From contig NW_024704743.1 in NCBI RefSeq assembly GCF_018977255.1, positions 1,674,001-1,738,000 of the forward strand: a stretch of 64,000 nucleotides of DNA, read 5' to 3'. Origin of the DNA: Callorhinchus milii (taxonomy: Eukaryota). How positions within the stretch are numbered: position 1 is the stretch's first letter; each line of letters opens with the position of its first letter. The notes beneath the pieces are model-generated. The model ran no database searches. It was not told the DNA's origin and worked only from the letters and a program-made list of their open reading frames with translations. The position numbers were made by a program, and so were the translations under genes. Below, in pieces: positions 33,401-63,077 of the stretch.

Positions 33401-33629
33401 ACCAGAACTGACCCCCACCCCCCAGAACTAACCCCCAACCCCCCCAGAACTAACCCCCACCCCCCCCCAGAACTAACCCCCACCCCCCAGAACTAACCCC
33501 ACCCCCCCCAGAACTGACCCCCCCCCCCCAGAACTAACCCCCACCCCCCAGAACTGACCCCCACCCCCCCAGAACTAACCCCCACCCCCCCAGAACTGAC
33601 CCCCACCCCCCCCAGAACTGACCCCCCCC
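33401..33629 (+). repeat. C-rich ~20-22 bp minisatellite CAGAACT(A/G)ACCCCCACn, ~11 units
   Basis: Units read directly. Confidence 0.9.
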
Positions 33630-33715
33630 TCACTCAGCCACTGTGCAGCGACCGCACACACAGAGCCACTCTGTCCCCCATCCAACTGGATCCCAGGCCA
33701 AGCACTCCCCAGACA

Positions 33716-34693
33716 TCCCTCCCTCCTCCGTCCTCCTCCATCCCCTCCCTCCCTCCTCTCCTCCTCCCTCCCTCCTCCTCCATCCCCTCCCTCCTCTCCT
33801 CCTCCATCCCTCCCTCCTCCCCCTCCCTCCCCTCCTCCTCCATCCCCTCCCTCCTCCCTCCTCCTCCCTCCTCTCCTCCTCCATCCCCTCCCTCCTCTCC
33901 TCCTCCATCCCCTCCCTCCTCCCTCTCCCTCCTCCTCCATCCCCTCCCTCCCTCCCTCCTCCTCCATCCCTCCATCCTCCTCTCCTCCTCCCTCCCTCCC
34001 CTCCCTCCCCTCCCTCTCCTCCTCCTCCATCCCCTCCCTCCCTCCCTCCTCCTCCATCCCCTCCCTCCCTCCTCTCCTCCTCCTCCTCTCCTCCTCCCTC
34101 CCTCCCTCCTCCCTCGCTCCCTCCATCCTCTCCTCCTCGATCCCTCCCTCCCCCCTCCCCCTCTCCCTCCCCCTCCCTCCCTCCCTCCCCTCCTCCTCCA
34201 TCCCTCCCTCCCTCCTCCTCCATCCGCTCCCTCCTCTCCTCCTCCATCCCTCCCTCCCCTCCCCCCTCTCCCTCCTCCTCCATCCCTCCCTCCCTCCTCT
34301 CCTCCTCCTCCTCCTCCTCCTCCATCCCCTCCCTCCCTCCTCCTCCATCCCCTCCCTCCCTCCTCTCCTCCTCCTCCTCCATCCCCTCCCTCCCTCCTCT
34401 CCTCCTCCTCCATCCCCTCCCTCCCCTCCTCCTCCATCCCTCCGTCCCTCCCTCCTCCTCCTCCTCCTCCATCCCCTCCCTCCCCTCCTCCTCCTCCCCT
34501 CCCTCCCCTCCTCCTCCATCCCCTCCCTCCCCTCCTCCTCCATCCCCTCCCTCCCTCCTCTTCCATCCCCTCCCTCCCTCCTCTCCTCCTCCTTCTCCCT
34601 CCCCTCCCTCCTCTCCTCCTCCTCCATCCCCTCCCTCCCTCCTCCTCCTCCTCCTCCTCCATCCCCTCCCTCCCCTCCTCCTCCCTCCCCTCC
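33716..34693 (+). repeat. ~1 kb polypyrimidine tract (CCT/CCCT/CATCCCCTCC)
   Basis: Almost exclusively C/T with a periodic A. Confidence 0.95.
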
Positions 34694-34794
34694 CAGTTCC
34701 CGGGATCAGCTGTGCGAAATATTCCAGGCAGTGAGTGGCCGGGATTCCCGGGATCAGCCCCACCTCTCCCCCCTCTCCCCCCTCTCCCCATGTA

Positions 34795-36590
34795 ACTCAC
34801 TTACACAGAGAGAGACAGACACACACACTCTCACACTGACACACACAGAGACACTCTCACACACACACACACAGACACTGACACACACACTCACACTGAC
34901 ACACACACTCACACACATAGACACACACACACTCACACTGACACACACACTCACACACACTGACACACACACTCACACACACACTCACACACACACTCAC
35001 ACTGACACACACACTCTCACACTGACACACACAGAGACACTCTCACACACACATTCACACACACGCTCACACACACACTCACACTGACACACACACTCAC
35101 ACACACACACTCACACACACACACACACACTGACACACACACTCACACACACAGACACACTCACACTGACACACACACACTCACACACACACTCACACTG
35201 ACACACACACACAGTCACACACACTCACACACACACACTGACACACTCACACACACACACACACACACAGAGACTCACACACACACTCACACAGACACTC
35301 ACACTCACACACACACTCACACACACACTCACACAGACACACACATACTCACACTCACACACACATAAACACACACACACACATAGACACTCTCTCACAC
35401 ACACAAACTCACACACACACAGACAGACACACACAGACACACAGAGACAGACACACACACAGACAGATACACACACACACAGAGAGAGACAGACACACAC
35501 AGACGGAGAGAGACGCACACACAGACAGAGAGAGACACACACACACAGACAGAGAGAGACACAGAGACAGACAGAGACACACACACACAGACAGACACAG
35601 AGACACATACACAGAAATACAGAGAGATACAGACACACAGAGAGGGACACACACACAGACGGACACACACAGGGACACAGAGAGAGACACACACACACAG
35701 AGAGACACACACAGAGCTACATACAGACAGATACGGGCACAGAGAGAGACACACACAGGGACACACAGAGAGACACACACACACACAGAGACACACACAG
35801 AGAGAGAGACACACACAGAGCTACATACAGACAGATACGGGCACAGAGAGAGAGACACACACAGAGACAGAGAGAGAGAGATATACACACACACGGACAC
35901 ACATAGAGAGGGACACAGAGACAGAGTGATATACACACACAGAGACAGAGAGAGACACACAGAGAGACAGAGAGAGACACACAGAGAGACAGAGAGAGAC
36001 ACACAGAGAGACAGAGTGAGAGATACACACAGAGACACAGAGGCTTGTGGATGCTGTTGTGGTGAAAGGACCTCAAAAATATACAGAGACAGAGATAGAC
36101 TTGAGAGACACACACACAGACACTCACACAGATAGACTTGAGAGAGAGAAACACACAGATACTCACACACAGATAGACTTAAGAGAGAGAGAGACACACA
36201 CACAGATAGACTTGAGAGATACACACACACACACACACACAGATACACAGATAGACTTGAGAGACACACACACTGATAGACTTGAGAGAGAGAGACACAC
36301 ACACTGATAGACTTGAGAGATACACACACACACAGATACACAGATAGACTTGAGAGACACACACACTGATAGACTTGAGAGAGAGAGACACACACACTGA
36401 TAGACTTGAGAGAGAGAGACACACACACACACACACACACAGATAGACTTGAGAGACACACACACAGATACACAGATAGACTTGAGAGAGAGAGAGAGAC
36501 GTATATGCAGATAGAGACTTGAGAGACAAACAGACAGATAGAGAGACTTGAGATTTGAGAGAGCGAGAGAGCGAGAGAGGCAGAGAGAGC
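34795..36590 (+). repeat. Compound (CA)/(GA) simple-repeat field ending in a GATAGACTTGAGA-(CA)n composite repeat
   Basis: Read directly; GATAGACTTGAGAGA recurs more than 10 times at 36090-36560. Confidence 0.95.
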
Positions 36591-36719: not shown

Positions 36720-36779
36720 ATGAATCAGACGGCGGGGGTCTCCAACAATGTCAAGTGCTCATCTGTTAAAGGCGTCAAG
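36720..36779 (+). CDS. DPP6: Alternative first coding exon of dipeptidyl peptidase-like protein 6, DPP6a/DPP6-E type (MNQTAGVSNNVKCSSVKGVK)
   Basis: ATG at 36720, 20 open codons, phase-0 donor AAG|GTAAGT at 36780. Matches my recollection of mammalian DPP6a [20 protein letters not shown] (14/20) better than DPP10a MNQTASVSHHIKCQPSKTIK. Confidence 0.9.
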
Positions 36780-37938
36780 GTAAGTCGGGGCGAAAGGGTC
36801 AGGAAGGGGGGTTTGGCGGGGGTAAAGCTTCGGTGTCAAGCACACGCCAGAGACGCACAAGGAGTTTCCATGTTCTTAATTCCTCGTCGTCGTGGGTTAA
36901 AGCAACTCCTACGTGTTAGGTCAGGGCATTAAGGGGTACGGGGCGAAGGCGGGTAAATTTGTCTTGAGGTACAGCTCAGCCGTGATCTTATAGGATGGCT
37001 GAACCGGCTCGAGGGGCTGAATGGCCTCCTCCTATTTCTGTGTGTGTTTCTTTCTCCCCCCCATCCCCTTAACTCCCCTTCGAGCATCACCAGCTGCTTT
37101 GCAAATGTTCTCATCCCCTTGTTTTTTTTTCTTTGCCAACGAAACTATTCGCTGCGCTTTCTGGCTTCCGTACTTCAGCCCACAGAGCCACCAAACCTCT
37201 CCCCACCCACGCAGAACCACCCCCCCCCCCCCACACACACACACACACTCCATCTCTGTTTCGCCTGGGATTTAAATGGTTAACGTGCTGTGTTTCGGTG
37301 GGAGAGAGAGAGAGAGAGCACGGCTCTCTGAACTCAGCAAGGGGAATACATTAATCTTGAGCTGGGAGGGAGGGTGTAACATTTTGTCTTAAAAATGGAC
37401 CAAAAAAAAATGTCAGGGAGTATACCTCGTATTAACGTTGATTCTTCCACTTGACTGAAATATCGAGTTACATTTGCCCGTCGCTCTGCTCTGCCAAACA
37501 AAAGTTGGGGTCGTTATATTCGAGCGTTAGATCTGGGATTGAGAGAGAGAGAGAGAGATGATCATAGACACTGGAATGACTCTTATTTCTTTTCTCTGCC
37601 GGACTGGCCCCCGCTTAACCCCCTCCGCCCCACACGCTCTTCCCTGCCTCCAGGAGGCCTCCTTTCGATGCCTGTGTTCAAATGTCTTATTATTGGTTGT
37701 CGGATGTTTTAGCCGAGGCCAGTTTGAGTCTCGAGGTGCTGTCTAGACTTTTGTTGCTGAAGTTTGGGTCTGTGGGTACCTCGATTTGTGGGAGATCTCG
37801 GTTTGTGGGCCACCTTATTTTTTTTATATATATCTGGTGTATTTTGTTTGTGGTATCCCTCGATTTGTGGGGTACCACAATTTGTGGTGTCTCCAGATTT
37901 ATTCTATATCTAGATCTTCTCTGGAACCTCAACTTGTG

Positions 37939-59244: not shown

Positions 59245-59804
59245 CCACACACACACACACACACACGCACACACTTATTACACAATCTAAGCACTTGCAA
59301 TGCCTCCTGTGGCGACGGTGTGGATCTCAAACTAAATTAATGCAACCATAGAAACGTAACGTGTGTCTCATAGTAACGGGCAGCGGGTTATTTATTACAC
59401 GCGCACACGCACACGCACACGCACACGCGCGCACACACTGGGCTCTGGTACTCGAGGCGTCTTTCATTCCCACCTGTCAAGGCTCTCTGTTAAAACAACA
59501 ACAAAAAAAAAAGCACCTGTCTCTCGCTCACCCTCCCTGCCGGCTCTTTACACACAGACACGCCAGCAGGAGAGGGACGGAGGGTTCAAATGGGTGATAA
59601 TGTATATTACACACACGCACTGTGTATTACACACACGCACTGTGTATTACACACACACACTGTGTGTTACACACTGTATTACACACACACACTGTGTGTT
59701 ACACACTGTATTACACCACTGTATATTACATAAGCTGTATATTACGCAAACACACAGTGGATCGCACGCAGTGGATCGCGCACACACACCACTGTACATC
59801 GCGC

Positions 59805-60210
59805 GCACGGTACATCACATACACCCACGCACAGTACATTACACGCACCCACACACACGGTACATTACATGCACCCACACACACGGTACATTACATGCAC
59901 CCACACACACGGTACATTACATGCACCCACACACACGGTACATTACACGCACTCACACACACGGTACATTACACGCATCCACACACAGTACATTACACGC
60001 ATCCGCACACGATACATTACACGCACCCACGCACACGCTACATTACACGCACCCACACACACGGTACATTACACGCACACACACACACGGTACATTACAC
60101 GCACACACACACACATCCACACACACGGGACATTACACTCCACCCCACACACACACACCCACACACACGTATATTACACACACGTACATACACACACAGT
60201 ACATTACACC
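59805..60210 (+). repeat. ~26-bp minisatellite ACACACACGGTACATTACAYGCACCC
   Basis: GGTACATTAC recurs at ~26 bp spacing. Confidence 0.9.
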
Positions 60211-60762
60211 CCCCCAAACACACACACACACGCACCACCCACACCCCACACACCCCTCCCCACACCCCCACACCCTTCCCACCCCACCCCTCGCCACACA
60301 CCCCACACCCTTCCCACACCCCACACCCTTCCCACCCCACCCACACACCCCACACCCCTCCCACACCCCTCCCCACACACCCCACACCTCTCCCCACACC
60401 CCTCCCACACACCCCACACCCCTCCCCACACACCCCACACCTCTCCCACACCCCTCCCCACACACCCCCACACCCCTCCCACACACCCACACCCTCCCAC
60501 ACCCCTCCCACACACCCCACACCTCTCCCCACACCCCCCCACACCCCCCCACACCCTCACCCACACCCCACACCCCCCCACACCCCTCCCACACACCCCA
60601 CACCTCTCCCCACACCCCCCACACCCCTCCCCACACACCCCACACCCTCCCCTCACACCACCCCTCCCACAACCCCCCCAACCCTCCCCACAACCCCCCA
60701 AATCCCTCCCCAACCCCTCCCCACAACCCCCCACCCCCCCCCTCCCCCCCACACACACACAG
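60211..60762 (+). repeat. C/A-rich low-complexity tract (CCCACA/CCCTC)
   Basis: Read directly. Confidence 0.9.
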
Positions 60763-60948
60763 ATCAATGTCAACCATCCGCTCAGATTGTGTAAAAGTCC
60801 ATTTACAGAGAGGGATTATATATATTTTCTCTCCGGAGGGGAATGAGGGACATCAGTCATTCACAACTCGACACGGATTACCCCACAGTGTGGCCGCTCT
60901 CCCGGGGGGGGGGGGGGGGGGGGTCCGGGCATTGGCGGAACCTGTTTG

Positions 60949-62472
60949 GAGAGAGGGGTAGAGAGAGAGAGAGGGGGTAGAGAGAGAGGGGGTTAGAGAG
61001 AGAGAGAGGGGGTTAGAGAGAGAGAGAGGGGGTTAGAGAGAGAGAGAGGGGGTTAGAGAGAGAGAGGGGGTTAGAGAGAGAGGGGGGGTTAGAGAGAGAG
61101 AGGGGGTTAGAGAGAGAGAGGGGGTAGAGAGAGAGAGGGGGGGTAGAGAGAGAGTGGGGTAGAGAGAGAGAGAGGGGCAGAGAGAGGGGGGAGTGGAGAG
61201 AGAGAGAGGGGTAGAGAGAGAGAGTGGGGGAGAGAGAGAGGGGGCGTAGAGAGAGGGGGGGGGTAGAGAGAGAGGGGGGGGTAGAGAGAGAGAGGGGGGT
61301 AGAGAGAGAGAGGGGTAGAGAGAGGGGGGGGGTAGAGAGAGAGGGGGGGGTAGAGAGAGAGGAGGGGGTAGAGAGAGAGAGGGGTAGAGAGAGAGAGGGG
61401 CGTAGAGAGAGGGGGGGGGGTAGAGAGAGAGAGGGGTAGAGAGAGAGAGAGAGAGAGAGGGGTAGAGAGAGAGAGGGGTAGAGAGAGAGAGAGAGACACA
61501 CACAGATACAGAGAGAGACACAGAGAGACTGAGACACAGAGACTGAGATACAGAGAGACTGAGATACAGAGAGAGACAGAGACAGAGACACACAGAGAGG
61601 TGCAGAGAGACTGAGATACAGAGAGAAACACAGAGAGAGACACAGAGAGAGAGAGACACACACATATACAGAGAGACACACACACAGATACAGAGAGAGA
61701 GACAGAGATACAGAGAGAGGTGCAGAGAGACTGAGATACAGAGAGACACACAGAGAGATACAGAGAGAGAGAGAGACACACACACACACAGCGACACAAG
61801 AGATTCTGAGGGAGATACAGAGAGATAGAGAGACAGACACATACACACAGAGACAGAGACAGAGAGAGACACAGAGAGGTGCAGAGAGACTGAGATACAG
61901 AGACACACACACACACACACACACAGAGATACAGAGAAGGAGACACACACACACACACAGAGATACAGAGAGAGAGACACACACAGATACAGAGAGAGAC
62001 ACACACACACACACAGAGATACAGAGAGAGAGACACACACAGAGATACACAGAGAGAGACACACACAGATACAGAGAGAGATACACACACACACACACAC
62101 ACACACAGAGATACAGAGAGAGAGACACACACAGAGATACACAGAGAGAGACACACACAGATACAGAGAGAGATACAGACACACACACAGCGACACGAGA
62201 GTCTGAGAGAGATACAGAGAGATAGAGAGACAGACACATACACTCACAAATAGATGGACTGAGAGAAACACAGAGAGAGAGATACACACAGAGAGAGACT
62301 GAGACAGAGAGAGACTGAGACAGAGAGAGACTGAGATAGAGAGAGAGACTGAGACAGAGAGAGACTGAGATAGAGAGAGAGACTGAGACAGAGAGAGACT
62401 GAGACAGAGAGAGAAAGATACAGAGAAAGAGAGAGACAGACAACACACACACTCACACACACATATATATAT
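60949..62472 (+). repeat. Compound (GA)nGGGGT(T)A then (GA)/(CA)/GATACA field
   Basis: Read directly. Confidence 0.95.
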
Positions 62473-62667
62473 AGAGGAAGGTACCACAGGCAACTCATCC
62501 GGCAACGAGGTTTGCTCTCTCTCTCCTCCTCCCTCCCTCCCTCTCTCCCTCTCCCTCCCTCCCTCCCTCTCTCCCTCTCCCTCCCTCCCTCCCTCCCTCT
62601 CTCCCTCTCCCTCCCTCTGACACCAGTGGATGTTTGTTGGCTCTGAGGCTCAGGAACCTGCCCCAGA
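62470..62667 (+). promoter_or_regulatory. Putative TSS/5'UTR region of the DPP6K-type exon
   Basis: Unique segment, CT-rich tract and ~50 unique bp directly upstream of the ATG; positional inference only. Confidence 0.5.
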
Positions 62668-62718
62668 ATGAAGAAGCAATCCATGATCAAAACGGCCACA
62701 ATGCAAGGCAACGTGATG
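62668..62718 (+). CDS. DPP6: Alternative first coding exon of DPP6, DPP6K type (MKKQSMIKTATMQGNVM)
   Basis: ATG at 62668, 17 open codons, phase-0 donor ATG|GTAAGT at 62719. Matches my recollection of mammalian DPP6K MKEKAMIKTAKMQGNVM (13/17). Confidence 0.9.
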
Positions 62719-63077
62719 GTAAGTGAGCAAACCAGTGTTCGGCAGAGAACCAGCCCTGAACCCCAGTCAGTCAGTCAGTCACTACACTCCAGTCCAGTCC
62801 AGTCCGGGGGTTTAAAGAGTGTTTGGGCTTTAACAGGGAGTCTGGTCAACCTGGACCAGGATACCTCAACAGGATCCCTCCCTCTCTTCCCTCCCCCCCC
62901 CCCCCCCCTCCCCCTCCCCTCCTCCTTACTGCTACTACTCCCCCCACCCCCCCCCCCCCACCACACCCCCACCACCCCCAAACTTAACTAAAATAAACTT
63001 CTGCGTAGAAATCCATAAGTTTTCTGTGCATTTCAATGCTTCCAAGAGTTTCAGGTTTCCATTTGCAATGGATGTGC

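Follow-up and report, generated by a model that had tools for sequence, protein, structure and literature searches.

A known relative of the exon analysed here is rat DPP6K, whose N-terminus slows recovery from inactivation and shifts inactivation to more negative potentials in Kv4.2+KChIP3a channels, with both effects lost when 16 N-terminal residues are deleted (PMC3366920). According to the review PMC3973911, the active stretch comprises Met12-Met17, Met12 and Val16 are critical, the lysines are dispensable by alanine scan, and a contact between the K N-terminus and a cytoplasmic Kv4 domain has been proposed. The nearest citation in that paper for the claim about Met12 and Val16 is a 2011 meeting abstract, and the available main text of PMC3366920 makes no mention of these residues under four spellings. 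Exon 1a is a second alternative first exon, with MNQTA and Cys13 as its hallmarks (PMC3366920, PMC3968176). As to the age of the K form, the 2012 study reported exon 1K from teleosts and coelacanth through to humans, whereas its preliminary screen of elephant shark and lamprey, both with incomplete sequence, gave no exon 1K (PMC3366920). The open-licence literature on DPP6 in shark, lamprey, and elephant shark gave only that paper, plus a pharmacology guide.

We compare with these systems a stretch of Callorhinchus milii DNA (the window, 64,000 nucleotides in all), in which a candidate exon of 51 open bases and 17 codons at 62668-62718 on the + strand encodes the peptide MKKQSMIKTATMQGNVM, carrying Met12, Val16, and Met17. 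Its ATG (62668-62670) has an A at position -3, an in-frame stop lies upstream at 62644-62646 with no in-frame ATG between that stop and 62668, and the exon ends in phase 0 at the GTAAGT donor. An earlier note on this DNA had described a 51-bp coding exon with a GTAAGT donor that keeps Met12 and Val16, and this description holds at 62668-62724; both residues are present, and residues 12-17 are all identical to those of the DPP6 chain 7ukg_I. There are, however, 70 ATG...GTRAGT pairs in the window, so that the exon layout is by itself weak proof. The exon lies in a small island of unique sequence, with a 3-kb low-complexity block on one side and more repeats on the other, which may explain why the draft assembly missed it. 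The features of the locus are collected in Table 1.

Table 1. Features of the 5' part of the DPP6 locus in the window.
Feature	Position	Strand	Remarks
DPP6 exon 1a coding part (MNQTA motif, Cys13)	36720..36779	+	donor GTAAGT 36780-36785, phase 0; fixes locus identity
Low-complexity block, ~3 kb, directly 5' of exon 1K	59601..62650	.	C-rich array followed by GA/CA array and CT tract
Pyrimidine (CCCT/CT) tract, ~100 bases, ending in CAG	62515..62626	+	simple repeat in leader or promoter, or possible splice acceptor
Probable exon 1K 5' untranslated part	62620..62667	+	predicted; in-frame stop 62644-62646
Upstream ORF, 13 codons	62630..62671	+	weak start context; TGA overlaps main ATG (ATGA)
DPP6 exon 1K coding part	62668..62718	+	17 codons; 13/17 identical to 7ukg_I, 15/17 to four shark models
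5' splice donor GTAAGT, phase 0	62719..62724	+	17-mer directly before ELVGSNP in 7ukg_I and 27 K-type proteins

The identity of the exon is carried by comparisons with proteins from outside the window. A PDB search among 177,635 distinct sequences gave a sole match to the peptide, residues 1-17 of 7ukg_I (an 801-residue DPP6 chain; 13/17 identical, E 0.081). This chain has lysines at positions 2, 4, 8, and 11, Met12, Val16, and Met17, followed by ELVGSNPP, and thus agrees with DPP6K as described in PMC3973911. Of the name-giving lysines, the window keeps Lys2 and Lys8, adds Lys3, and has changes at 4 and 11; orthologues from teleosts, sturgeon, and sharks vary at these positions as well. With a frog K-type N-terminus as the query, the score is 64 at 62668 and 23 at the next-best site in the window, and it reaches at most 35 against 60 block-shuffled windows (mean 25.5, sd 2.3), which places the match above chance. 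Two shark K-type proteins also align to the exon by tblastn (15/17 identical, E 1e-9 to 2e-9), and by this method DPP6 similarity in the window is limited to exon 1K and exon 1a. The peptide is 15/17 identical to the K-type models of four sharks and 10-15/17 identical to the 11 distinct K-type 17-mers that we retrieved. A protein search with exon 1K plus 23 intron read-through codons gave no candidate, the match being too short for this to be informative. Metagenome contigs gave 0 matches to a degenerate pattern for the exon end; the one match of this pattern within the window is there by construction and is left uncounted. Similarity to DPP6K, on which the naming of the exon depended, was found on search, both to 7ukg_I and to the shark models; 62668-62718 is correctly named, as the orthologue of DPP6 exon 1K in the chimaera.

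The neighbouring exon 1a, situated 26 kb upstream on the same strand, identifies the gene. All 20 of its residues (20/20) agree with the beginning of C. milii DPP6 isoform X2 (XP_042188255.1), whereas none of the 19 other distinct MNQTA-type starts that we retrieved is identical to it; a PDB search with exon 1a was without a match. Because DPP10a likewise starts with MNQTA, we considered whether the locus could be DPP10 and the candidate a DPP10 first exon, but the window exon 1a is identical at only 11/20 positions to herring DPP10a, the C. milii X2 protein groups with bony-vertebrate DPP6 with 100/100 support, and a K-like stretch occurs in no DPP10 among 163 further proteins scanned (best score 23; few of these were DPP10). 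We regard a DPP10 identity as having a negligible chance of being correct. The earlier note's preference for DPP6 over DPP10 is thus borne out, and by its sequence the window is the 5' part of DPP6. The L, S, and common exons were not found within the 64 kb and would lie downstream of the window, an arrangement that fits the description in PMC3973911 of S as the first exon nearest to exon 2. Among the DPP10 proteins, Clupea DPP10 X2 begins S-like and X1 a-like, with no K-like DPP10 start among the proteins scanned; it thus seems that two or more of the first exons predate the divergence of DPP6 and DPP10. As a separate observation, made post hoc, the window has only two large low-complexity blocks, 33401-36550 (3.15 kb) and 59601-62650 (3.05 kb), the next largest being 350 bases; both run from a C-rich array into a CA/GA array, and each stops just 5' of one DPP6 first exon.

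The K start is readily recognized elsewhere. We retrieved 207 proteins; in 199 of them the shared sequence ELVGSNP occurs close to the N-terminus, and in 27 of the 199 a K-type 17-mer, in 11 distinct versions, directly precedes it. The class is clear-cut, with scores of 63-86 as against 3 or less for the rest, and score alone selects the same 11 sequences as the motif filter, which is circular for positions 9-15. K-type proteins span amphibians, sturgeon, teleosts, and sharks. K-type models are present in at least 4 of 19 chondrichthyan species, among the cluster members listed (15 of 36 and 15 of 25), and are joined to exon 2 in two catsharks, S. canicula (XP_038654336.1) and S. torazame (XP_072364293.1), in the zebra shark Stegostoma (XP_059495731.1), and in Chiloscyllium plagiosum (XP_043546663.1). 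None was seen in eight batoid species among the members listed (15 of 36 of the cluster). All five members of the C. milii DPP6 cluster are accounted for: four start with L, a, or S, one is a fragment, and none starts with exon 1K. Automatic gene models usually require RNA support for such isoforms.

Conservation within the K-type 17-mers is uneven. Met1, Ile7, Thr9, Ala10, Met12, Gln13, Gly14, and Asn15 are invariant in the 11 sequences and the window; Met12 is kept in 11/11 of the distinct sequences, Val16 in 9/11, and Met17 in 8/11. The K-type starts of two catostomid fishes (Xyrauchen and Myxocyprinus) have Met in place of Val16, so that one of the two residues described as critical varies in nature. 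Among the DPP6 models of sharks and bony fish, two further types of first exon recur in addition to a, K, L, and S: one ends in an FWK/LWK-like motif, and the other, in sharks, starts MIATHQK. Neither of them is in the window.

Evidence on RNA comes from four runs out of 24, three of them probable RNA and one of unrecorded type. The three probable RNA runs, of unrecorded tissue and with contigs that drop rare forms, gave no contig over 62620-62759 and no splice joint; they match only simple-repeat pieces at 62600-62617 and 62764-62798. Loose contig ends at these repeats were considered as evidence of splicing and rejected, as they belong to other repeat loci. The run of unrecorded type contains a 282-base contig that covers 62600-62875 with two differing letters, gapless and unspliced, and exon 1K and its intron are thus contiguous in that run. 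A silent relic, no longer spliced into DPP6 mRNA in the chimaera lineage, would account for the missing coverage in the probable RNA runs and for the presence of the exon in 0/5 retrieved C. milii records. Such decay is nonetheless hard to reconcile with an intact ATG, frame, and donor, with a peptide that matches sharks at 15/17 positions and 7ukg_I at 13/17, and with the finding that nothing else in the window apart from exon 1a keeps DPP6 similarity by tblastn; conservation across the holocephalan branch would point to selection, and we consider a relic very improbable.

The sequence just 5' of the ATG permits a different arrangement, in which the exon is the K orthologue but not a first exon, and is joined to a non-coding leader further upstream, with the CAG at 62624-62626 as the acceptor. 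This would leave the protein unchanged and place the promoter elsewhere. The roughly 100-base pyrimidine tract does end in this CAG, and pyrimidines make up 88% of the 25 bases ahead of the AG, but the tract is a simple CCCT repeat within a 3-kb low-complexity block, a similar block precedes exon 1a, and the literature on mammals treats exon 1K as an alternative first exon (PMC3366920, PMC3973911). An upstream leader therefore appears improbable, although less so than loss of the exon.

The reading that we favor, with a probability of about 0.85, is that of an orthologue likely to have its own transcription start, with a phase-0 splice to a common exon 2 that would lie past the window, and acting on Kv4 in the manner of DPP6K. 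The resulting DPP6 subunit would carry, immediately ahead of the membrane anchor, a cytoplasmic tail of 17 residues, in which Met12-Met17 may contact the cytoplasmic part of the Kv4-KChIP channel, by analogy with rat DPP6K. Such a tail would be expected to counteract the effect of KChIP, to make recovery from inactivation slower, and to move steady-state inactivation in the negative direction. Identity with 7ukg_I throughout residues 12-17 makes the same action the best guess for the chimaera.

The exon could alternatively be used while its conserved tail serves another role, in trafficking, in contact with an adaptor, or on a different channel, with the slowing of Kv4 being a later or partner-dependent effect. 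Several reports are consistent with this, in that slowing depends strongly on the KChIP variant (PMC3973911), the effect is modest in binary channels (PMC3366920), DPP6 also acts in adhesion and in filopodia (PMC9409431), and the Kv4.2-DPP6S structure has a disordered DPP6 N-terminus, so that no contact is known from it (PMC8566240). The best-conserved block, Met12-Asn15, nevertheless falls within the stretch mapped in the rat, and we think a different role unlikely.

The K start is carried by a holocephalan, sharks, sturgeon, teleosts, amphibians, and the PDB chain, and its presence in a holocephalan, in sharks, and in bony vertebrates gives a minimum age, that of the last common ancestor of living jawed vertebrates. 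The sequences thus support a DPP6K isoform at least as old as that ancestor, in which, by analogy with the rat protein, it likely already slowed channel recovery. The a, L, and S first exons are likewise common to cartilaginous and bony fish. The suggestion in the earlier note that the isoform may be as old as the jawed-vertebrate cerebellum accordingly stands as a minimum age, but K is not singled out by it, since a, L, and S are equally shared.

Whether the K exon has any particular connection with the cerebellum turns on the cyclostomes and on expression. In five hagfish models, which appear to represent two genes, no K-like stretch was seen (the scores reach 21 at most), an absence that is limited by annotation because annotation misses K even in C. 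milii; among the proteins looked up by name, none was from a lamprey. In the tree these models form an open fork relative to DPP6 and DPP10, with compositional bias. A DPP6/10-like protein of the hagfish Myxine glutinosa starts with a clear L-type N-terminus, so that at least one first exon predates the jawless/jawed split; with K unseen in the hagfish models, this keeps the cerebellum link alive. Cyclostomes are generally held to be without a proper cerebellum, but to have cerebellum-like circuits (bioRxiv 10.64898/2025.12.03.692081). DPP6K makes up 41% of DPP6 transcripts in rat granule cells (PMC3366920) and has also been reported from pyramidal neurons of the hippocampus and from the superior colliculus (PMC9409431, PMC3973911). 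This expression outside the cerebellum, together with a, L, and S being at least as old, weakens any special link, and the connection of exon 1K with the origin of the cerebellum is a weak one. The fuller proposal, that exon 1K was a jawed-vertebrate addition to older first exons, arose with the true cerebellum, and has since set the slow recovery of the granule-cell A-current, is conceivable but doubtful.

What emerges is a modest dating result: the chimaera exon is a real orthologue of a known isoform, one that is already present, unlabelled, in predicted shark proteins and is missing from the five retrieved C. milii records. It closes a small gap in print, as the 2012 study dated exon 1K to bony fish only; the holocephalan and four sharks show that the K start shares with a, L, and S an origin before the cartilaginous/bony fish split. 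The finding would gain greater weight if lamprey and hagfish genomes lack exon 1K and chimaera granule cells express it. K-type orthologues also offer natural variants for mapping the modulatory motif, and Ile7, Thr9, and Ala10, which are invariant but fall outside the region mapped so far (12-17), would be worth mutating.

Among known systems, mammalian DPP6K is matched by the chimaera exon, which belongs to the same gene, has exon 1a upstream, ends in phase 0, and encodes a 17-residue N-terminus with 13/17 identities and residues 12-17 identical; the two differ at positions 3-5 and 11, where the chimaera is without Lys4 and Lys11. The shark K-type isoforms (S. canicula X4, S. torazame X3, Stegostoma X5, and Chiloscyllium plagiosum X4) are closer, at 15/17 and with QS at positions 4-5 in common; they are automatic models without a K label, joined to exon 2, and the retrieved C. 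milii records are without the isoform. Exon 1a of DPP6a and DPP10a resembles exon 1K as a short exon that provides an alternative start within the same gene and modulates Kv4 gating, but it is unrelated in sequence and encodes an N-type inactivation ball that blocks the pore and has a redox site at Cys13, whereas the K form is reported to oppose KChIP and to slow recovery.
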